The notes under the pieces are model-generated. The model was not told where the DNA came from. It saw only the letters and a program-made list of their open reading frames with translations, and ran no database searches. Positions 6,640-23,388 of a stretch of DNA of 32,000 nucleotides are shown piece by piece. The first letter of the stretch is position 1; each line of letters opens with the position of its first letter. The position numbers and the translations under genes are program-made. Source of the DNA: Trichodesmium erythraeum IMS101 (GTDB lineage Bacteria > Cyanobacteriota > Cyanobacteriia > Cyanobacteriales > Microcoleaceae); assembly GCF_000014265.1 (NCBI RefSeq), contig NC_008312.1, forward strand, positions 5,610,001 through 5,642,000, written 5' to 3'.

Positions 6640-7135
6640 CATACAGACCCAAGGTGGATAGCTTTAAGGAGGTTAAATAATAATTATTTGTGATCACAAC
6701 AACAAATTCTGCTAGCATAATGGTTGGTTTAAGTTACTAGAAGATGGGGACAACTTCATCAACTGAAAACATACAGAGAAAGCTTAAATGTCAGCGGTAT
6801 GTTAGCTAACCATAAACTACCCCAGCCAATAGGCTGGGTACAGATAAAGATTTTATGAATTTAGGCCACAGTTTAAATATCAAACTCAATAGTACGGTTC
6901 TAATTTAGTAGTAGTTGACAAGTCTTTTCTGTAATCAAAAACTTGCTCTAAGTCTGATTATTTATAAAGATATACTATTAATTCTGAGAATCTTTAAGGG
7001 CAAAAAATGTGGTATATTTGTTGAGTCTGATCAATCTAAATGCAAGTATAAAGATTTAGAATACGGTCATCTTGACCGTTAATACCTTTGAAGGTTTTAC
7101 TGCTGTACTGACTGATAGAAGCAGTAAGTAAACAT
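6640..7135 (+). pseudogene. Heavily decayed TnpB (IS200/IS605-IS607 accessory, OrfB-type) relic. The 5' boundary is uncertain.
   Basis: Fragments in shifting frames resemble the conserved C-terminal half of TnpB: ESLNVSGMLANHKLPQPIGW (cf. EDLNVKGMLKNHKLAKAISDAGW), VVVDKSFL*SKTCSKS (cf. VDRFFPSSKTCSxCG), LINLNASIKI (cf. DRDLNASINI) and TVNTFEGF...SSK. There are many stops and deletions. Confidence 0.5.
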
Positions 7136-13543: not shown

Positions 13544-15580
13544 TTATATTTTACAATCCCTAAAATCTTCAATATTTATGGCACTTTCTTCGACGCCCTG
13601 CAATGTAATTGAAAGTTGGTTGGCACTAATTCGAGTATCATTACCTATTTGAGAAATAGTTAACTGCTGGAAACTTAAACCATCACCTAAACCAATAACA
13701 TCTATTCCATCTTCAAAATCAGTAATAATATTGTTCCCATCATTAGACCTGAAATGAAAGTTATCGCCACCAACTCCACCAATGAGAATATCATCGCCAA
13801 AATCACCGTATATCAGGTCTGCTCCTGCACCACCATTGACGATGTCGTTACCCTTGCCTCCACAAAGCATATCATTGCCCTCGTTACCAAAAACAATATC
13901 ATCACTGCGGTTGCTATATATTAAGTCGTTAGTGACAGAGCCAATTAAATTATCCTTTTCATTAGTAGCAATAATAGTATTGGGAGTAATTACTCCTTGA
14001 GTTTTTTCCCAAACATGTTCTGCGACTTCTCGCCCTAGTGCCCTCCCATTGAGATCCCCATCTTCAAAGTGGATACCGCCGTAAATACGAGATATACCAG
14101 CCTGATCAGAAGCTTCGCTAAAAGTATTCCACTCAAGAGTTACAGGCACTTTAGGTGTGATACCTGGTTCAAAAACAGACTCGCCTACCTCAAAAGTTAT
14201 GCCACCACCAAAATCATCGCTACCAGTAAACCGTTTGAGAATTTCAGCTCCTGCAGCACTGAAACTGCTATGACCTGATATATACTCAGCAAAAGGAGGT
14301 GAAGGCTCCTCTCCAGGGGCTTGATAAGTAAGGAAATTAGTTGCAAGAATAGTTGCAGTTCCTTCTGTAGGATCCTTCCAACTATCAATAGCAAAACCAC
14401 CAAGCTCTGGATTAAATTCTCCAATTAAACCTTGTGCTCCGAGTTCCCGTACTACTCGCACGGGACGAGCATAGTCGTAGAAAACTTTAGATCCCCAGGC
14501 AGCAATGCCAGCATCAAATAATGCATTGCCCAAACTAAAGAAGAGTTTCACATCTTCATCTAAAGTATGATTATCTCTGGCTGAGATAAATTCTCCAAAA
14601 TTCATCCAGGTTCCCGGAGGGTAAGATGTACCATGGCCGTCTTCCCAAAATTCAGCAATTAATTTTTGCTCATCAGTTAAGTTGGCGCGAACGTTGGCAA
14701 TATTTTCTGCTTGTGCGATAAATTCAGGGTTGATAATAGTTCCAACAATATCTTTGCTAATTGCGACAACAGAGCCATCTGGTAATGTAATTGTACTTGC
14801 ATCTAAGTCAACCTCGCCATCTACAAGCAAGAATGGTTTTGGTGGTTGGGGTCGTATTTTTTCAACTGATATAGAACTGAAGGGGATGACTTTTCCCCAT
14901 TGAGGTGTGAGGAATGTTTGTATTCGATCTTCTTCACCGGGCTCGGCATCAATGGGAACTGGTTCTGGGGTCCAGCGCTCTATATTAATGGAACTTCCTG
15001 GAAAATTAATAGGTTCATAGCTGCTAATATCAGAATAGGGGGTACCGTCGCCATTGGGATCATCCCCGAGTTGATTTGAACCGTCGTTGGACCGGAATCT
15101 TAATAGTGCTTCGGCAGAGACGTTACCAATACCAGCAGGGGTAGTAGTATCAGTAGTAGTATTGTTGGTTTCTAGGTCTAATTTGACCATTAATTCATTG
15201 AAAGTTTCTACTTGAGCGGGGAATAATTCTGACAATACCCGGTAAGCAGCAAAACTCATGGCTTGAGTTTTATTAAAGTTGGTGTTTTCGGATAGGGGGC
15301 GTTGTAAGTCATCTCCCAACTGAGTTCCTATAGCTAATGGATCATAGGCACTCCAGGCATCATACATGGCTGTATGTACCATTGCATAAGCACGAGAGGC
15401 AATGGTTGGACCGGAGACGGAGTTTATGACTGCTTCTTGGGCTAGTTCATCCCATAGTCGTGAAATAGTAGGCAAAGGATTTTCAGGTGTGACAACTGGG
15501 ACTTCAGGGTTGAGGATAGGATGTATATGGTTAAATTTTCCATGATTCGGAATTGGCTGTTGTTGTAAGGGTGACTCCAT
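13544..15580 (-). CDS. PAP2 / vanadium-dependent-haloperoxidase-like enzyme fused to C-terminal RTX (hemolysin-type Ca2+-binding) repeats
   Basis: All three PAP2-superfamily motifs are present: KVFYDYARP (K-x6-RP), YISGHSS (SGH) and SRIYGGIHFEDGD (SR-x5-H-x2-D). The C-terminus has GNEGNDMLCGGKGNDIVNGGAGADLIYGDFGDDILIGGVGGDNF, which are GGxGxD nonapeptide repeats. There is no N-terminal signal peptide. Confidence 0.85.
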   Translation of the reverse strand: MESPLQQQPIPNHGKFNHIHPILNPEVPVVTPENPLPTISRLWDELAQEAVINSVSGPTIASRAYAMVHTAMYDAWSAYDPLAIGTQLGDDLQRPLSENTNFNKTQAMSFAAYRVLSELFPAQVETFNELMVKLDLETNNTTTDTTTPAGIGNVSAEALLRFRSNDGSNQLGDDPNGDGTPYSDISSYEPINFPGSSINIERWTPEPVPIDAEPGEEDRIQTFLTPQWGKVIPFSSISVEKIRPQPPKPFLLVDGEVDLDASTITLPDGSVVAISKDIVGTIINPEFIAQAENIANVRANLTDEQKLIAEFWEDGHGTSYPPGTWMNFGEFISARDNHTLDEDVKLFFSLGNALFDAGIAAWGSKVFYDYARPVRVVRELGAQGLIGEFNPELGGFAIDSWKDPTEGTATILATNFLTYQAPGEEPSPPFAEYISGHSSFSAAGAEILKRFTGSDDFGGGITFEVGESVFEPGITPKVPVTLEWNTFSEASDQAGISRIYGGIHFEDGDLNGRALGREVAEHVWEKTQGVITPNTIIATNEKDNLIGSVTNDLIYSNRSDDIVFGNEGNDMLCGGKGNDIVNGGAGADLIYGDFGDDILIGGVGGDNFHFRSNDGNNIITDFEDGIDVIGLGDGLSFQQLTISQIGNDTRISANQLSITLQGVEESAINIEDFRDCKI

Positions 15581-16256
15581 GATTTTGTTTTTAGTATAAA
15601 GAATAAATGATTTTAATTAGGGCTTGCAGTTCAGAATGTTTGAAAGCTTGCTATTAACACCTTTTATATTACAATAATATTATTTCCGGTTCAATAGTTA
15701 CAGTTTTGGGAAAAAAGCCAGAAAACATAAGAAAACTAAGGGCTGGGGTGTGTTTGCAAATTCTAAAGTAAAACTGTATTTTTTTTTGTATACAATAATT
15801 ACATTGGTTTCTGAGTCAATATTAATTTTTGCTAAGTTTGAGGGGATATAGGAACTTGATCAAATATGGTTGACGCAAAATTATGGTGAAACGATGGCGA
15901 AAGGAGAATAAGTTGTTTGTTATTGTTCAGAAGAACGACTGAATGAAATTATTGAGCATGATCAGGAAAATGGGGTGAATATTTTTAATCCTCATACCTA
16001 TATTTTGGGAGATGGAGCTATGAAAACTATTGATTTTGAACAGTTAGAATTTAAGCAAAAAGTAGACTGTTATGGTTTATTAAATTCTGGCAAAAAGGCT
16101 TGGTTGGAGACCATCGAAAAAAATATTAGAGTTTTGCGATCGCAACTTTTGCAGTTATGAGGTACATTTGCGACTTGCCTAAATTTCTTTTCAAAAGGGG
16201 AACTTTTTGTGGGCTCCCCCGCTTCTGATAGCAGTTGTCCGGCACGGTAGACCACT

Positions 16257-16402: not shown

Positions 16403-17158
16403 TCAAAATAGAACTTGATGAATACTATCAACAACCCCCTCGATAAAATTTACTGCATCATTAACCATATCTTCATCTATAGGCCAACGCTCTCCTATAT
16501 TATAGCTAGGATCTATGTCAGCTTCATGAGCAATTTTATTCCTACGTTCTACTATAAAACTAAGCTGTTCTTTAATTTGTTTGATATCTTCTGACTTAGG
16601 TTTACCCATTTGAGCACCAACTTCGTCCCATAATTTTTTGTCTGAAATAAGTCTAATCCCATCAGCTATTTTATCTGGTTGCTGAAAACTCTTGTATCCA
16701 AGACTTTTGCGAATTTCCTGCTCTAGCCAAGAATTACCATTTAACTTATTAAGCATCATATCAGAAATAGGTTGAGTTAGAGATTTCACTGTATGAGACT
16801 GCTGTAGAAACTCATCACCATAGTTTTGTAGAAACTCATCTTCCAGCCAAGATCCGATATCTATCGCTAGCATTCGGTCTTGACGAGCAGCACCAAGGGA
16901 AACTTGAAAGCGAGCAAAAGCTGATTGTTTGCTAGACTGAGGTTCAGAACGTCGGCCTTGATAAATTTCCAACATTCCTAAAGTCACGACTTCGTGAATA
17001 TAGTAGTCTAAAGCGCTGACTGCAAGAACTAAAGCTGCTCTGAGAATATCTGATAGATATAAAGTATTAGTAGCTTGAGTTTTGAGTGAATTGTGAAGGG
17101 CTATCAATTCTCGAACGCGATGAATGCTAATATTAAACTGATTGAGTACTGACTGCAT
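16403..17158 (-). CDS. HEPN-like protein (putative R-x4-H RNase domain); hypothetical
   Basis: 251-aa helical protein. The C-terminal FIVERRNKIAHEAD contains R-N-K-I-A-H (R-x4-H) in the RN.IAH context typical of HEPN nucleases. The N-terminal helix SDILRAALVLAVSALDYYIHE resembles the first conserved HEPN helix. The ATG at 17158 overlaps the upstream ParA-like gene by 26 nt. Confidence 0.55.
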   Translation of the reverse strand: MQSVLNQFNISIHRVRELIALHNSLKTQATNTLYLSDILRAALVLAVSALDYYIHEVVTLGMLEIYQGRRSEPQSSKQSAFARFQVSLGAARQDRMLAIDIGSWLEDEFLQNYGDEFLQQSHTVKSLTQPISDMMLNKLNGNSWLEQEIRKSLGYKSFQQPDKIADGIRLISDKKLWDEVGAQMGKPKSEDIKQIKEQLSFIVERRNKIAHEADIDPSYNIGERWPIDEDMVNDAVNFIEGVVDSIHQVLF

Positions 17159-18203
17159 GGGAAGTGGTTAGTCCAATAATTTTTTCTGCCAGTTGTGAAA
17201 AGGTTTCTCGAAATTCTTTTTGTTTGTTTTGATTATTCCGCAAAACAACTCCTGTTTGGCCTAACTGTTCAGGTGTCAGAGCATAAACTGGTGTTCGGTG
17301 TTCTTGAGATAGTGCAATTAGACTATTGAAGTTAGAAATTTTTGTTAAGGTGTAATTATCTTCTATTCCTTGACTACGATAAACTGTTTTTTCTAACAAC
17401 ATTTGATTTTGTTCTAATACTGGAGCTAGTTTATTAGAAACAGTGTTTTGTATTTTCTCAATCCATATTTGAAAAGCAGCAGTTTCTTTCCCACGTATAA
17501 TTCGATAGTTTTGAACAATAGTTCCGAGAAAACTTAAATTGACATCAGGAAAAGGATAGTTAGCATCTTTGAGAATTGGAAGTGAACTTGCTTTCTTAGC
17601 CCAAGCATGCCACTTTGGCATCACTTTTGTTAGAGAGTCAATTGCCATCAAAGAGAAAAAATCAGCAGTAGTAGGAACTAAGAAAAAATTACTGGTCATT
17701 AATAAATTCTGATTAATTGAGCCTAAGCTGGGACTCATATCAATTATAATATAGTCAGCGTTATATTTGAGTGCAGTTTTATTAAATAAATCAGTCAAGG
17801 CACCTGGTACGTTTTTAAGAGCTGCTATTGAACCACTTAATTCTTGAGCAATACCCAGTGTTACTTCGTATTCGGCAAGTCCAACATGACCAGGTAGTAT
17901 AAACAATCTTTCCTGACCTATGATCGGAATACAGTCAATTGCTTCAATTGCTCTTGGTTGTGCTTCAAAAGCTGGAGCTAAACCTGTCTTTATATTTGAA
18001 CCTGTATTATAAATTGTTTCTATTCTTTTTTCGTCGTCCTCAGTTCCTTCTCCCAAGCTGACTCCAGTCAAATTACACTGTGGGTCTGTATCGGCAAGGA
18101 TAACTGTTTTACCTTTTGAAGCTAACATCCAGCCTAAATTAAAGGCAGTTGTAGTTTTGCTAACTCCACCTTTATGATTAAATAGGGCAATTTTTTGAAC
18201 CAT
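17133..18203 (-). CDS. ParA/MinD/Soj-superfamily ATPase with a long C-terminal extension
   Basis: Deviant Walker A KGGVSKTT at residues 11-18 (IALFNHKGGVSKTTTAFNLG), ILADTDPQCNLT, and Walker B-like DYIIIDMSPSLG. At 356 aa it is clearly longer than canonical ParA. No ParB-like gene is adjacent. Confidence 0.88.
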   Translation of the reverse strand: MVQKIALFNHKGGVSKTTTAFNLGWMLASKGKTVILADTDPQCNLTGVSLGEGTEDDEKRIETIYNTGSNIKTGLAPAFEAQPRAIEAIDCIPIIGQERLFILPGHVGLAEYEVTLGIAQELSGSIAALKNVPGALTDLFNKTALKYNADYIIIDMSPSLGSINQNLLMTSNFFLVPTTADFFSLMAIDSLTKVMPKWHAWAKKASSLPILKDANYPFPDVNLSFLGTIVQNYRIIRGKETAAFQIWIEKIQNTVSNKLAPVLEQNQMLLEKTVYRSQGIEDNYTLTKISNFNSLIALSQEHRTPVYALTPEQLGQTGVVLRNNQNKQKEFRETFSQLAEKIIGLTTSHAVSTQSV

Positions 18204-18466
18204 TGTAAATCACCTTTTCTTCAATACATTTGAGTATACCATGAGGGTAGCACAATAGAGTTGTTGGGAAATCAGGTAAAATAAAGTGCTTGTTGGGTTT
18301 TTCTGTAGTTCTACCCAACTTATATTCTGCTAGTAGGTTTGGTTGACGGACAAAACCCCGCCACAATAAAACGTTTTTTACTGTATATAATAATTAGTTG
18401 GGAATTTTGAAGCTAGCGGTCATTTTTCCAATTCTCCTTGGCCCAATTCTGAGATAGGTACAAAAT

Positions 18467-20566
18467 ATGAATCTGCGTAAAGGTGAAATATTACAATTAT
18501 ATCAACGAGGTAAACGAGAATTTCAAGGGTTTAATCTTAGAGGTCTATCTTTTGAAGGAAAAAATTTGTCTGATGCAGATTTCAGTTTTGCTGATATTCG
18601 AGGTACTAATTTTCGTGGGGCCAATCTAACTGGGGCTAGGTTTTGTGGAGCTAAGGCAGGATTACAGAAACGTTGGGTTGTAGTTTTGCTGATCGGTGTT
18701 TTTATTTTAGTTGGTATATCGGCTTTTTTGAGTGTATTCACCTTATCCCTGATATCACTAATTTTTGATTCTAGTAGCATAGAAAATCAAGTTACTGGTT
18801 GGGTATCCTTAATTGTATTTATTGTATTCTGGATAATGCTTTTTTATAACAGAATAGAAAACGTAGCCGTAGCCGGAGCCGTAGCCGGAGCCGTAGCCGT
18901 AGCCGTAGCCGTAGCCGTAGCCGTAGCCGTAGCCGTAGCCGTAGCCGTAGCCGTAGCCGGAGCCGTAGCCGGAGCCGTAGCCGTAGCCGTAGCCGTAGCC
19001 GTAGCCGTAGCCGTAGCCGGAGCCGTAGCCGGAGCCGTAGCCGGAGCCGGAGCCGTAGCCGTAGCCGTAGCCGTAGCCGTAGTTCAGACAATGTTAAGTA
19101 TTTATATTGCTTATCGAGCAATGAAAGGAGATGAAAAATACGCTTTAGTTCGCAATATAGCTATTGTTTTTGCTGCCTCATATGGAACCTCTTTCAGAGA
19201 TGCAAATTTAACTGATGCTGACTTCACTAATGCTACTCTCAAAAGTACAGATTTTAGAGGCTCTAACATAACCCGTACTTCTTGGAAAAACACGATCAAA
19301 CTAGACCGCATACGACCAGGGAAAACTTATCTAAAAGATACCAAAATCAGAGAATTAGTCAAAACTGGTGAAGGTGAAAATATCAACTTAGATCGCTCCA
19401 TCCTCCAAGGAATTAATCTTCAAGGAGCAAACCTAACTAATGCCAGTTTCATAGAAGCAAATCTCAACTCAGCCAACCTTCAAGATGCAAACCTGACTCG
19501 TGCCAAATTAGTAGGAACATTTTTAGACCAAGCTGACTTAACTGGAGGCACCCTAACGGGAGCATTTCTTGAAGATTGGGGAATAACCACCACCACAAAA
19601 CTAAATGGTATCAAATGCGATTATGTTTATATGCGTTTGCCTCCAGAAAAACGACCTGACTTTCTCAAACTTCCACCAAAAGATGCTCAAAAAGATAATC
19701 CTCTCCGTGAACCTGCTGACTGGAACAAGAACTTTAAAGAAGGAGAATTTATTGACTTTATCACCCCAATGATAGAAACCCTCAACTTTTATCATGCAGA
19801 AAAAGCCGACCCTAAGTTAATTGCCTATTCATTTCAGAAATTGCAAAACAACTATCCAGAAGCAGAATTAGAAGTGATTTCTATGGAAAGGCGAGGGAAA
19901 AACCGTCAGGACTTATTAGTAAAAGCTGAAACCGCACCAGCAGCAGACCATTCAAAATTACACGCAGAATATTTTGAGACTTATGACAGACTAGAAGCAC
20001 TTCCACCAAATGAATTACAACTAATATTAGCAGAAAAAGATAAACAAATAAAACGATTAGCAGCTTGGGTCGATACTGTGATAAAATCCCCAAGTATATA
20101 TGCAGAAAATTATCATAATCAAGGAGACACAAAAATGTCAGAAAATACTGGAGATAAAGTTGATATAAATGAAAATTATGGGGTGGTTGGTAAAGAAGGA
20201 GAAATTCATGGTGCAGTTGGGAACAAAGGAGAAATTTATGGTTTAGCTGGTAGTCAAGGAGAAATTAACAACTCAAAAATTGCTCGAACAATTAATGAAT
20301 CTCCAGAACAAAATTTAGCACAAGCAGCAAAAGATATTCAAGAATTATTAGAACAACTAGATCAAACTTACCCCTCAGATACAACAATGGACAGAATGAA
20401 AATTGCCACAGAAGTAATTACACAAATTAATAACAATTCAACAAAGAAAGAAAGAATATTTGCTGCTATTAAAGCAGGTGGAATTGCTGCTTTTGAACAA
20501 TTACTTAATCATCCTGCTAGTAGCTTTGTAATTGCGGCTTTAGAAGATTGGCAAAAGACTAAATAA
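18467..20566 (+). CDS. Membrane pentapeptide-repeat protein with an internal (Val-Ala/Gly-Ala) low-complexity array
   Basis: Pentapeptide repeats run at both ends of a hydrophobic core (LSDADFSFADIRGTNFRGANLTGARF; ANLTNASFIEANLNSANLQDANLTRAKLVG). Two predicted TM helices lie at about aa 70-125. The CDYVYMRLPPEKRP block and the helical C-terminal module (NLAQAAKDIQELLEQL...AALEDWQ) recall a family common in filamentous cyanobacteria. Confidence 0.88.
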   Translation: MNLRKGEILQLYQRGKREFQGFNLRGLSFEGKNLSDADFSFADIRGTNFRGANLTGARFCGAKAGLQKRWVVVLLIGVFILVGISAFLSVFTLSLISLIFDSSSIENQVTGWVSLIVFIVFWIMLFYNRIENVAVAGAVAGAVAVAVAVAVAVAVAVAVAVAVAGAVAGAVAVAVAVAVAVAVAGAVAGAVAGAGAVAVAVAVAVVQTMLSIYIAYRAMKGDEKYALVRNIAIVFAASYGTSFRDANLTDADFTNATLKSTDFRGSNITRTSWKNTIKLDRIRPGKTYLKDTKIRELVKTGEGENINLDRSILQGINLQGANLTNASFIEANLNSANLQDANLTRAKLVGTFLDQADLTGGTLTGAFLEDWGITTTTKLNGIKCDYVYMRLPPEKRPDFLKLPPKDAQKDNPLREPADWNKNFKEGEFIDFITPMIETLNFYHAEKADPKLIAYSFQKLQNNYPEAELEVISMERRGKNRQDLLVKAETAPAADHSKLHAEYFETYDRLEALPPNELQLILAEKDKQIKRLAAWVDTVIKSPSIYAENYHNQGDTKMSENTGDKVDINENYGVVGKEGEIHGAVGNKGEIYGLAGSQGEINNSKIARTINESPEQNLAQAAKDIQELLEQLDQTYPSDTTMDRMKIATEVITQINNNSTKKERIFAAIKAGGIAAFEQLLNHPASSFVIAALEDWQKTK
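18863..19082 (+). repeat. Hexanucleotide microsatellite of 36 units (28 GTAGCC + 8 GGAGCC), in frame within the pentapeptide-repeat CDS
   Basis: Counted unit by unit from 18863. The only polymorphism is T/G at unit position 2. The order is V V G V G V(x11) G V G V(x7) G V G V G G V(x4), where V is GTAGCC and G is GGAGCC. It ends in a partial GTAGTT unit. Confidence 0.95.
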
Positions 20567-20799
20567 ATTAAATAATTTGAATAGTTTTTATCTCTTATGA
20601 TTTGAGAGAAACTTATATATTTTACTATGGAAAATAAGGCTCTTCTATCATTATTAGGAAAAATTCTCAGAGACTGTTTCTGAGATAAATATTAAATCCA
20701 GGAGTAGTAAACTGTACTAGCCTACTACGAAATTATTATCTTGTGAGCTTCTTGTCAAAATCAAAAACTTACAAGAACTAGCTATGATTAGTTCTTAAG

Positions 20800-20873
20800 G
20801 GCGAACGATGGGAATCGAACCCACGAGTGGTGGAACCACAATCCACTGCCTTAACCACTTGGCTACGCTCGCC
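20800..20873 (-). tRNA. tRNA-His (GTG anticodon) with encoded G-1; CCA not encoded
   Basis: The minus strand folds by hand into a cloverleaf. It reads G(-1)GCGAGCG-TA-GCC-AAGTGGTTAA-GGC-A-GTGGA-TTGTGGT-TCCAC-CACTC-GTGGG-TTCGATT-CCCAT-CGTTCGC-C. The anticodon loop TTGTGGT gives GTG. The 8-bp acceptor stem with G-1:C73 is the tRNA-His hallmark. Confidence 0.9.
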
Positions 20874-22487: not shown

Positions 22488-22782
22488 ATGTTTGATGACT
22501 TAAATTAAAAGCCAAAACTCCTGGTATTATAAGGTGGCTGGGTAGGTGCCTCTAAATAAGCATTTGGTTATGGGAGAAGAACCACTTAATTTTTTTTTAC
22601 TATACTGTAAAGTGGATTTTCGTCTGTTTAATAAAAAAGAGAAAAAAGATAGTTTATATTTAGAAATAAGTCTGAATATTATTCAAGATAATTATATTAA
22701 ATTATCCATAATAGGAAGAGAAATAGTCAAAAATTATAAAGTATTACTGTCAGTTACTAAAATTTTTCAGAGGATTAAAAAT

Positions 22783-23388
22783 ATGTATAAAAATCTGGAA
22801 GTAGACCATATTTTTAGAATAGTTGAAGACGATGGGGAGGCGATAAATAAAATATTATCGCTGGGGTTTTCTGCTTCTGAAATTAGGGAGCATACTGGAC
22901 AAGGAACCAGTTCAAGGTTTATTTTTTTTGAGAAGAATTATTTAGAATTAATCTATCTTAGAAGTAGAGAAGAATCCGAAAATAACTTTGTTAAATTTCA
23001 TGAAAGGGTGGATAGTTTCAGAAATAAATCTGGTTCCCCTTATGGAATAGGATTTAGAGGTAAGCTTTCAGAAATAGAGAAAAATGATTTTGAGTTTTAT
23101 CAACCTCAATACAATTTATCCGGTAAAAGTTTTGCTATCTATATGCACAGTTCCTATTTCACAAATCCAGAAATGCCTGCGATATTTTTCCTGGAAGTAA
23201 ATAACAGTACAAAAGAAGATTTTTATCCTATAAATAAGGGTGTTTCTTGTGAAAAATATATGCCTTTAAATAAATTTACTGATGTAAAATTAATTTCTCC
23301 AATATTAAAAGAAGAGTCTTTTGGAAATTTTGAAATCCAGAAAGGGGATGAGGAAAAATTACTAATTAACGGTAAATTTGCATTTTAA
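22783..23388 (+). CDS. Glyoxalase-like (VOC superfamily) domain protein
   Basis: From the ATG at 22783: MYKNLEVDHIFRIVEDDGEAINKILSLGFSASEIREHTGQGTSSRFIFFEKNYLELIY. This matches the glyoxalase-like pattern (DH-hydrophobic ... GF ... H.G.GT.N..i.F...YLELI). The 79 upstream codons in the ORF track are Lys/Ile-rich and probably not part of this gene. Confidence 0.55.
   Translation: MYKNLEVDHIFRIVEDDGEAINKILSLGFSASEIREHTGQGTSSRFIFFEKNYLELIYLRSREESENNFVKFHERVDSFRNKSGSPYGIGFRGKLSEIEKNDFEFYQPQYNLSGKSFAIYMHSSYFTNPEMPAIFFLEVNNSTKEDFYPINKGVSCEKYMPLNKFTDVKLISPILKEESFGNFEIQKGDEEKLLINGKFAF

Follow-up and report, generated by a model that had tools for sequence, protein, structure and literature searches.

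The 32,000-nucleotide stretch of the Trichodesmium erythraeum IMS101 genome analysed here (NC_008312.1, positions 5,610,001 to 5,642,000; hereafter the window) carries two overlapping genes, identified by exact look-up as Tery_3667 and Tery_3666, which encode an ATPase of the ParA/Soj type and a protein of the HEPN superfamily. The two genes probably form a self-contained two-gene toxin–regulator conflict module, in which a HEPN ribonuclease (RNase) effector is held under the control of a ParA-type ATPase. A candidate conflict module had been proposed at this position in an earlier note made from the sequence of the window, and the present analysis supports that interpretation. HEPN RNases are effectors in accessory systems of type III and VI CRISPR (clustered regularly interspaced short palindromic repeats) loci, in abortive infection and in type VII toxin–antitoxin systems. 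Control of a HEPN protein by a ParA/Soj-type ATPase has, as far as we found, been a computational prediction only since 2013.

Anatomy of the gene pair

Both open reading frames (ORFs) are present on the minus strand with the boundaries first described for them (Table 1), and the positions of the key motifs were verified by translation. The ATPase starts with MVQKIALFNHKGGVSKTTT, and the C-terminal sequence of the HEPN protein includes IVERRNKIAHEAD. That the ATPase stop falls inside the next ORF, as reported in the earlier note, was confirmed, and the overlap is conserved across loci (see below). The ATG of the HEPN gene (MQSA...) is the start common to all homologues, and inspection of the sequence ahead of it found nothing resembling a Shine–Dalgarno element; the overlap is likely to reflect translational coupling. 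A scan of the region 5' of the ATPase for sigma-70 consensus sites gave no minus-strand site. An RNA component of the type III antitoxin kind was also sought; tRNA-His is the sole Rfam match in the window, and no tandem repeat lies close to the two genes. The UniProt entry for Tery_3666 (Q10YE6) already bears the name 'RiboL-PSP-HEPN domain-containing protein'.

Pairing across genomes

When one genome per species was scanned, 256 of 185,579 representatives carried a relative. The best 80 of these 256 loci, all cyanobacterial, are the basis of the cyanobacterial pairing and flank counts given in this work. The ATPase gene lies directly upstream of the HEPN gene and on the same strand at 78 of the 80 loci, i.e., 78 of the 79 at which pairing can be tested: one exception is a contig end, and at the other (L052) the ATPase has been replaced by an insertion sequence (IS)-like insertion. 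All 11 non-cyanobacterial relatives inspected also have the ATPase upstream, orthologous over its full length at 38–55% identity; four of these relatives are on metagenomic contigs, one of which has the ATPase gene cut by the contig end, four are on long chromosomal contigs, and the others are on Burkholderia plasmids and Pseudomonas filamentous phages. With co-occurrence near universal, chance adjacency is rejected, and the co-occurrence check suggested in the earlier note thus came out in favor of the pair.

Clustering of the flanking ORFs found no genes common between loci except these two. Synteny of the flanks is kept only among close relatives (e.g., Nostoc), and the flanks differ even within Trichodesmium. 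The geometry of the junction is far more stable. The overlap is 17 nt at 56 of the 78 cyanobacterial loci and 26, 32, 68 or 167 nt at 20 others, with a constant frame offset; of the two loci left, one (L062) has a 3-nt gap and the other (L050) is frameshifted. An overlap of exactly 17 nt is also found on four non-cyanobacterial chromosomal contigs (L093–L096), including a Terriglobia genome, each with the end of the ATPase gene at locus position 7017 and the start of the HEPN gene at 7001. The geometry of the overlap has thus been kept across phyla. Comparison of the distance matrix of the ATPase with that of the HEPN protein gave a correlation of r=0.63, a value reached in 0 of 999 permutations. 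The ATPase and HEPN genes are a self-contained unit whose members co-occur and co-evolve in variable genomic contexts. An exhaustive profile search for the HEPN family as a whole gave 1,284 clusters at 50% identity.

The HEPN protein

Tery_3666 matches the Pfam family PF18735 (HEPN_RiboL-PSP) over residues 12–249 with a score of 61.3 bits against a gathering cutoff of 28.4 (E 1.5e-16), in agreement with the HEPN identity proposed for the 251-residue protein and with RiboL-PSP-HEPN, one of the candidate families that had been named for it. The same family is matched by 71/71 relatives scanned. Recurrent sub-threshold Pfam matches among these 71 proteins belong exclusively to the HEPN clan, namely MAE_28990 in 38, ApeA in 16, Swt1 in 16 and AbiU2 in 6. 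The first of these, PF18737 (MAE_28990/MAE_18760-like), reaches 1.7e-5 in its best relative and stays sub-threshold on Tery_3666 itself, at 14.4 bits against a cutoff of 26.8. The name of PF18735 derives from a fusion to L-PSP in some members, which the Pfam model does not require; the Pfam scan found no L-PSP/YjgF fusion in Tery_3666, which is a standalone protein.

Neither the arginine (R206) nor the histidine (H211) of the R-x4-H motif varies in alignments of 29, 71 and 27 sequences that extend to 32% identity, and R40, S48, D51, H55 and D214 are likewise invariant across the HEPN family alignments. All 75 intact cyanobacterial HEPN copies contain RRNKIAH[EQD]AD. Sequence profile searches of the Protein Data Bank (PDB) with the HEPN protein gave weak matches only (E 0.1–0.9), and in the weak alignments to the defence RNase ApeA (Ec1ApeA, Ec4ApeA) the RN.I.H pattern is in register.

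The AlphaFold2 (AF2) model of Tery_3666 is all-helical, with a predicted local distance difference test score (pLDDT) of 94.7. Most relatives are about 200 residues long and align to Tery_3666 in two stretches, 1–95 and 140–248, and helices of the intervening insert occupy residues 101–139 in the model. Since most family members have this shorter length, the cyanobacterial HEPN protein has an insert of about 49 residues. Membership in the HEPN superfamily is solid at the profile level; at the fold level, Foldseek gave no significant HEPN match (discussed below). Based on family membership and the invariant R-x4-H motif, Tery_3666 is predicted to be a HEPN ribonuclease effector.

The ATPase

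The assignment of Tery_3667 to the ParA/MinD/Soj group, made from the sequence KGGVSKTT, is borne out by translation, by Pfam (AAA_31, E 1.5e-29; CbiA, E 4.5e-13) and by comparison of the AF2 model (pLDDT 88) with known structures. The best Foldseek match is PDB entry 3pg5 (DIP2308; E 8.3e-13), and Soj (2bek) is matched with E 2.4e-12 and a target-normalised template-modelling score of 0.77; together with Soj, ParA (8ray) and McdA (6non) fall in the range 1e-12 to 1e-10. The Walker A, A' and B motifs are intact, D38xD40 and D155 are conserved, and FNHKGGVSKTTT is present in 65 of the 76 ATPase ORFs scanned. As modelled, Tery_3667 has the ParA/Soj fold, with a deviant Walker A. The extra length of about 100 residues had been described as a C-terminal extension; the extra residues are real, but they are not a simple tail and correspond to insertions at about residues 45–80 plus a long terminal helix at 318–354. 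Against the NCBIfam equivalogs for partition and MinD proteins the ATPase lies far below all cutoffs (NF041546 ParA_partition, 60.3 bits against 180).

Dead ATPases and broken copies

At four Crocosphaera loci (L003:3483-4544, L010, L021:6956-8017 and L039) an ATPase-like ORF of about 353 residues is intact and its nucleotide motifs are destroyed. The Walker A reads FNYEFGLSQTIT, with the signature and P-loop lysines both lost, DTDPQCN is changed to DADSNCV or DANPTCS, and IDMSPS is changed to INMGDT. The HEPN protein encoded beside this dead ATPase retains RRNKIAHEAD. Within the clade, which includes C. chwakensis CCY0110 (P0035 is C. subtropica ATCC 51142), the ratio of nonsynonymous to synonymous substitution rates (dN/dS) is 0.28–0.41 for the ATPase and 0.11–0.21 for the HEPN protein. 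Elsewhere in Crocosphaera (L061, L064) the ATPase is normal. A second, independent loss of the signature lysine is found in UBA11372-type cyanobacteria (L004 and L011), which have FNHNSGISKTTT and keep the P-loop lysine, and a further Walker A variant, at L023, reads FNNKAGIGKTTI.

Broken copies of either gene also occur. Four independent nonsense alleles of the HEPN gene (L026, L066, L064 and L079) lie beside an intact ATPase, two of them in isolates, Nodularia chucula CCY0103 and Petrachloros mirabilis ULC683. Conversely, an intact HEPN gene stands without a functional ATPase at two loci, both from metagenome-assembled genomes: at L052:7021-7809 a reverse-strand IS-like ORF takes the place of the ATPase, of which only the last ~15 nt are left, and at L050:4215-5284 the ATPase is frameshifted in an assembly with 3x coverage.

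A separate observation concerns Microcystis (P0391–P0420), in which the ATPase cluster at 90% identity has 477 members and the HEPN cluster 49. The latter includes fragments of 57, 98, 142, 199 and 228 residues, one 57-residue fragment being annotated on a complete 5.7-Mb chromosome. These counts hint that the HEPN gene of Microcystis may often be truncated while the ATPase is kept.

Plasmids, phages and defence-type neighbors

The pair is carried by Burkholderia plasmids (B. glumae, B. arboris), conjugative plasmids among them, and by two filamentous Pf phages of Pseudomonas, Pf5 (strain PA14) and WX-TY. No cyanobacterial plasmid or phage in the collections searched carries the pair. In Pf5 of P. 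aeruginosa PA14 (AY324828.1), Orf317/PA14_49030, described as 'similar to Soj', is followed by a 175-residue PF18735 HEPN ORF (L091:5001-5528) that is unannotated in AY324828 and overlaps the end of Orf317 by 8 nt; it has no counterpart of the last helix of the 202-residue WX-TY homologue (L092:3700-4308). The pair is not discussed in the Pf phage papers examined.

Neighbors at other loci include BamHI-type restriction–modification, MazE–PIN, MNT, ImmA-like peptidase, AAA_15/AAA_21 ATPase and transposase genes, and also ordinary housekeeping genes. Among 148 unique flank proteins there are 5 AAA_21/AriA-like proteins, 6 Uma2 proteins, 5 methyltransferases and 5 matches to PDC-S03. In searches with the PADLOC models, the WX-TY HEPN protein had a marginal match to RTasHEPN (E 0.0015), the ATPases matched only the P-loop segment (~40 residues) of PDC-M28B (E 1e-8 to 1e-4), and AriA-like models matched some neighboring genes and no member of the ATPase–HEPN pair.

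Proposed mechanism and alternatives

HEPN RNases are generally dimeric, with their R-x4-H motifs paired, and ParA proteins dimerise on ATP. For the Trichodesmium pair we infer a physical interaction, a direction of control, a trigger and an RNA target as follows. The ATPase would be translated first and the HEPN protein then made in coupled amounts by way of the conserved overlap. The ATPase would bind the HEPN protein and keep it inactive, and its ATP-dependent monomer–dimer cycle would serve as a switch for the pairing of two HEPN subunits into an active RNase; HEPN pairing may in this way be coupled to ParA dimerisation. Phage infection, loss of the element, damage to the nucleoid or a similar trigger would flip the switch, leading to RNA cleavage and growth arrest.

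Several pieces of evidence suggest that the conserved job of the ATPase includes binding and restraint of the HEPN protein: (i) the order of the genes, (ii) their coupled translation, (iii) the HEPN nonsense alleles and, above all, (iv) the retained dead ATPases. Because the dead-ATPase lineages keep both ORFs under purifying selection, the role retained there would be binding rather than catalysis, and since the nucleotide motifs are intact in most lineages, ATP-dependent dimerisation seems to add the switch. A further-reaching proposal, which we advance tentatively, is that the ATPase is a new kind of nucleotide-switch toxin regulator, whose sandwich dimerisation, possibly on nucleoid DNA, directly gates HEPN pairing, so that the state of the DNA or of the nucleotides, e.g., under phage takeover or nucleoid damage, would be read out as RNA cleavage. 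If true, the pair would represent a new class of toxin–antitoxin or abortive-infection system that has co-opted a cytoskeletal-type positioning ATPase for immunity, and the dead-ATPase lineages would represent a locked, addiction-only state.

Several observations weigh against a toxin–regulator module: (i) The structure check proposed in the earlier note yielded an all-helical model, and a Foldseek comparison of that model with the PDB and BFVD found nothing significant (best E 0.3), and the HEPN entries 2hsb, 7ae8 and Csm6 appear only at E >2. (ii) None of the families in PADLOC-DB v2.0.0 matches Tery_3666 or five relatives, and our literature search found no experimental study of a ParA–HEPN pair, or of PA14_49030 within one. 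(iii) In the collections searched, carriage on mobile elements is rare, at 13 of 72,556 plasmids, all from Burkholderia, and 2 of 50,697 phages. (iv) The counts of defence genes in the flanks, taken without a background set, are only suggestive. (v) In base composition the pair does not stand out within the window, and a foreign origin was rejected. (vi) dN/dS is 0.03–0.15 for both genes, with dS saturated between orders, which is unusual for defence genes, and the 65–80% identity of both proteins across cyanobacterial orders is also untypical of them. Given the strong purifying selection and the saturated dS, this identity reflects constraint and not recent transfer. (vii) If the assemblies of L052 and L050 are correct, the HEPN protein alone is not lethal, and a HEPN gene without its ATPase argues against a strict antitoxin role.

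The last of these points would be easily accommodated if control were reversed, i.e., if the ATPase were a sensor and activator and the HEPN protein were harmless and inert until an ATP-bound ATPase dimer, sensing an invader, assembled it for abortive infection, a logic known from other pairs of ATPase and nuclease in defence. The size of the ATPase (356 residues), with its conserved insertions and long C-terminal helix, is more suggestive of a sensor than of a small antitoxin, and most lineages show high conservation of its nucleotide motifs. The dead-ATPase lineages, which keep both genes under purifying selection, fit poorly with ATP-driven activation as the sole role, and both the regulator-first overlapping order and the recurrent HEPN nonsense alleles suit a neutraliser better. 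On balance we regard reversed control as rather unlikely.

The constraint noted under (vi) raises another alternative, in which the pair serves housekeeping RNA processing and a ParA-type ATPase positions or times a conserved RNase, e.g., on the nucleoid, in large-genome cyanobacteria and other environmental bacteria. Very strong purifying selection with saturated dS and high cross-order identity would be natural for such a function, as would the stable synteny within Nostoc and the location of the pair on chromosomes, with native base composition, and its absence from the cyanobacterial plasmids searched; ParA-family ATPases are also classically paired with a small partner encoded just downstream. 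A housekeeping role is nonetheless improbable, given that the distribution is patchy (256 of the 185,579 species representatives), that flanks vary even within Trichodesmium, that either partner is recurrently pseudogenised, that Pf phages and Burkholderia plasmids carry the pair as accessory cargo and that it often lies beside toxin–antitoxin, restriction–modification and transposase genes.

A role in DNA partition or positioning, with the HEPN-like protein as a catalytically irrelevant adaptor that, like ParB or McdB, stimulates the ATPase and links it to cargo, would fit the ParA fold, a gene order that mimics parAB and mcdAB and the presence of the pair on large Burkholderia plasmids, but it is very improbable, as an adaptor would not need the seven invariant residues of the HEPN protein (R206, H211, R40, S48, D51, H55 and D214), the ATPase scores 60 bits against the NCBIfam partition cutoff of 180, the pair is retained in two lineages that have lost ATPase motifs, integrated filamentous phages and varied chromosomal loci have no obvious need for partition, and the repeat scan found no centromere-like array near the pair. 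No ParB, carboxysome or division gene lies near the pair, as the earlier note had said, and because the equivalog cutoffs are failed and ParB is absent, a true partition ParA is rejected.

Surrounding genes

The pair is flanked by a vanadium-chloroperoxidase-like/RTX-type gene and by a pentapeptide-repeat gene. The tRNA-His, the IS607 element and the NACHT gene next to which it had been placed are all present (Table 1), but the pentapeptide-repeat gene intervenes before the tRNA. The stretch from tRNA-His through the IS607-type recombinase to the NACHT gene, beyond which lies an ABC_tran gene, looks like an accessory or conflict-gene patch apart from the pair.

Within the 699-residue pentapeptide-repeat protein, a 37-copy array of the hexanucleotide CGTAGC (18862-19082) encodes a long (Ala-Val)n run. 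The corresponding gene elsewhere in Trichodesmium encodes 645 residues in one assembly and is split into 543 + 150 residues in another; because gene length differs between assemblies, the repeat seems to be of variable length or difficult to assemble. On the other side, a FAD_binding_4 gene takes the place of the 678-residue gene in other Trichodesmium assemblies (L001, L084). Public Trichodesmium assemblies annotate one of the two 61-residue ORFs as a gene; it is not conserved beside the pair in other taxa and has no recorded family match.

Table 1. Features of the ATPase–HEPN locus and its surroundings, in positions of the window.
Feature	Position	Strand	Remarks
ParA/Soj-fold ATPase gene, Tery_3667	17133..18203	-	356 aa; database label 'regulatory protein CII'
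Deviant Walker A, KGGVSKTT	18150..18173	-	Signature Lys K11, P-loop Lys K16; from translation
HEPN (RiboL-PSP family) gene, Tery_3666, predicted RNase effector	16403..17158	-	251 aa; PF18735 match
R-x4-H motif, R206 NKIA H211, inside RRNKIAHEAD	16526..16543	-	Predicted catalytic; from translation
Helical insert of ~49 aa, residues 96-144 of HEPN	16727..16873	-	Specific to cyanobacterial 250-aa form
Overlap of ATPase 3' end and HEPN 5' end, 26 nt	17133..17158	-	Translational coupling likely
Divergent intergenic region 5' of ATPase, presumed promoter region	18204..18466	.	Between ATPase start and pentapeptide-repeat gene at 18467
Gene for 699-aa pentapeptide-repeat protein with hydrophobic segments	18467-20566		Divergent from pair; between pair and tRNA-His
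tRNA-His	20799-20872		Rfam
IS607-type serine recombinase (MerR helix–turn–helix + Resolvase)	21749-22354		
Gene with weak Glyoxalase_3 match	22546-23388		Instead of TnpB
NACHT+NCH4 STAND NTPase gene	23961-25943		
Gene for 678-aa DUF6851 + vanadium-chloroperoxidase-like protein	13544-15580		C-terminal hemolysin-type calcium-binding (RTX) repeats; directly downstream of pair
Two mutually overlapping 61-aa ORFs	15975-16160; 16070-16255	+; -	~150-240 nt downstream of HEPN stop

Significance and comparison with known systems

The dyad is large, old and tightly coupled, with the 1,284 HEPN clusters noted above, at least 256 species that have the cyanobacterial 250-residue form and a 17-nt overlap that recurs in several phyla. 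The dead-ATPase lineages, the HEPN nonsense alleles and the ATPase-less loci supply natural experiments, and the Pf5 prophage of P. aeruginosa PA14, phage WX-TY and the Burkholderia glumae plasmids are tractable test beds. If the proposed mechanism is true, it would provide a new regulatory principle for latent RNases and a function for a conserved gene pair in Trichodesmium, Crocosphaera, Microcystis and Nostoc, all ecologically important cyanobacteria.

The earlier note knew of no experimentally characterised defence or toxin–antitoxin system with this architecture. We found no experimental work on it, but it is not unprecedented: a ParA/Soj–HEPN gene dyad was predicted as a novel toxin–antitoxin system by Anantharaman, Makarova, Burroughs, Koonin and Aravind (2013, Biol Direct 8:15, PMC3710099), and both the idea and the architecture of the pair are therefore already known from computation. 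Like the Trichodesmium pair, the 2013 dyad joins an R-x4-6-H HEPN gene and a gene for a ParA/Soj-like SIMIBI ATPase in one operon, and the proposed logic is the same; that study, which is computational only, proposed the ATPase as the antitoxin and, as its mode of action, either a change of conformation that depends on nucleotide or phosphorylation (PMC3710099). The family assignments differ. The dyad was placed in the MAE_18760 HEPN family, whereas RiboL-PSP was tabled as 'fused to endoRNase L-PSP; operon with ParB' and its HEPN domain was described as a distant relative of AbiD/AbiF (PMC3710099); Tery_3666 is above threshold only for PF18735 and sub-threshold for PF18737. A parallel for the dead ATPases of ParA–HEPN loci is given by the inactive MinD/ParA-like domains reported as effectors in other cyanobacterial conflict systems (Kaur et al. 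2020).

ApeA, AbiD/AbiF, AbiU2 and PD-T4-5, HEPN RNases of abortive infection and defence that are encoded by single genes or fused, have the HEPN superfamily and the RN.I.H context in common with Tery_3666. They differ in having sensor domains in cis, whereas the regulator of Tery_3666 is a separate ParA-type protein, and no PADLOC model of these systems matches Tery_3666 or its five relatives. In the type VII system HepT–MntA, a nucleotide-using regulator encoded upstream acts with an R-x4-6-H HEPN RNase toxin. The Trichodesmium pair resembles it in having two genes, a HEPN protein with R-x4-6-H and the regulator upstream, and the HepT–MntA structures 7ae8, 6m6u and 5yep are among the weak Foldseek matches of Tery_3666. 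The partner in HepT–MntA, however, is a minimal nucleotidyltransferase, whereas Tery_3667 is a ParA/Soj ATPase of 356 residues with no match to NTP_transf_2; the HEPN protein of HepT is about 130–150 residues long, compared with 200–250 in the ParA–HEPN family, and belongs to a different family with no significant sequence or fold match.

On the ATPase side, ParABS, McdAB and MinDE have the fold and the deviant Walker A in common with Tery_3667, as well as a small partner encoded immediately downstream. Tery_3667 differs from their ATPases in being about 100 residues longer and in having a predicted RNase as its partner, with no partner resembling ParB, McdB or MinE. The closest known structure is DIP2308 of Corynebacterium diphtheriae (3pg5), an uncharacterised ParA-like protein from structural genomics with 361 residues, a length similar to that of Tery_3667. 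It is the best match by sequence (6.9e-17, in an alignment limited to residues 4–198) as well as by fold. Finally, in PARIS (AriA–AriB) and Gabija (GajA–GajB) an ATPase partner restrains a latent nuclease until a trigger arrives. Their ATPases are of the ABC/OLD type and their nucleases are Toprim or helicase-associated, so that in the absence of homology the likeness is one of analogy: a restraining ATPase and a latent nuclease, which in Trichodesmium would be a ParA/SIMIBI ATPase and a HEPN protein.

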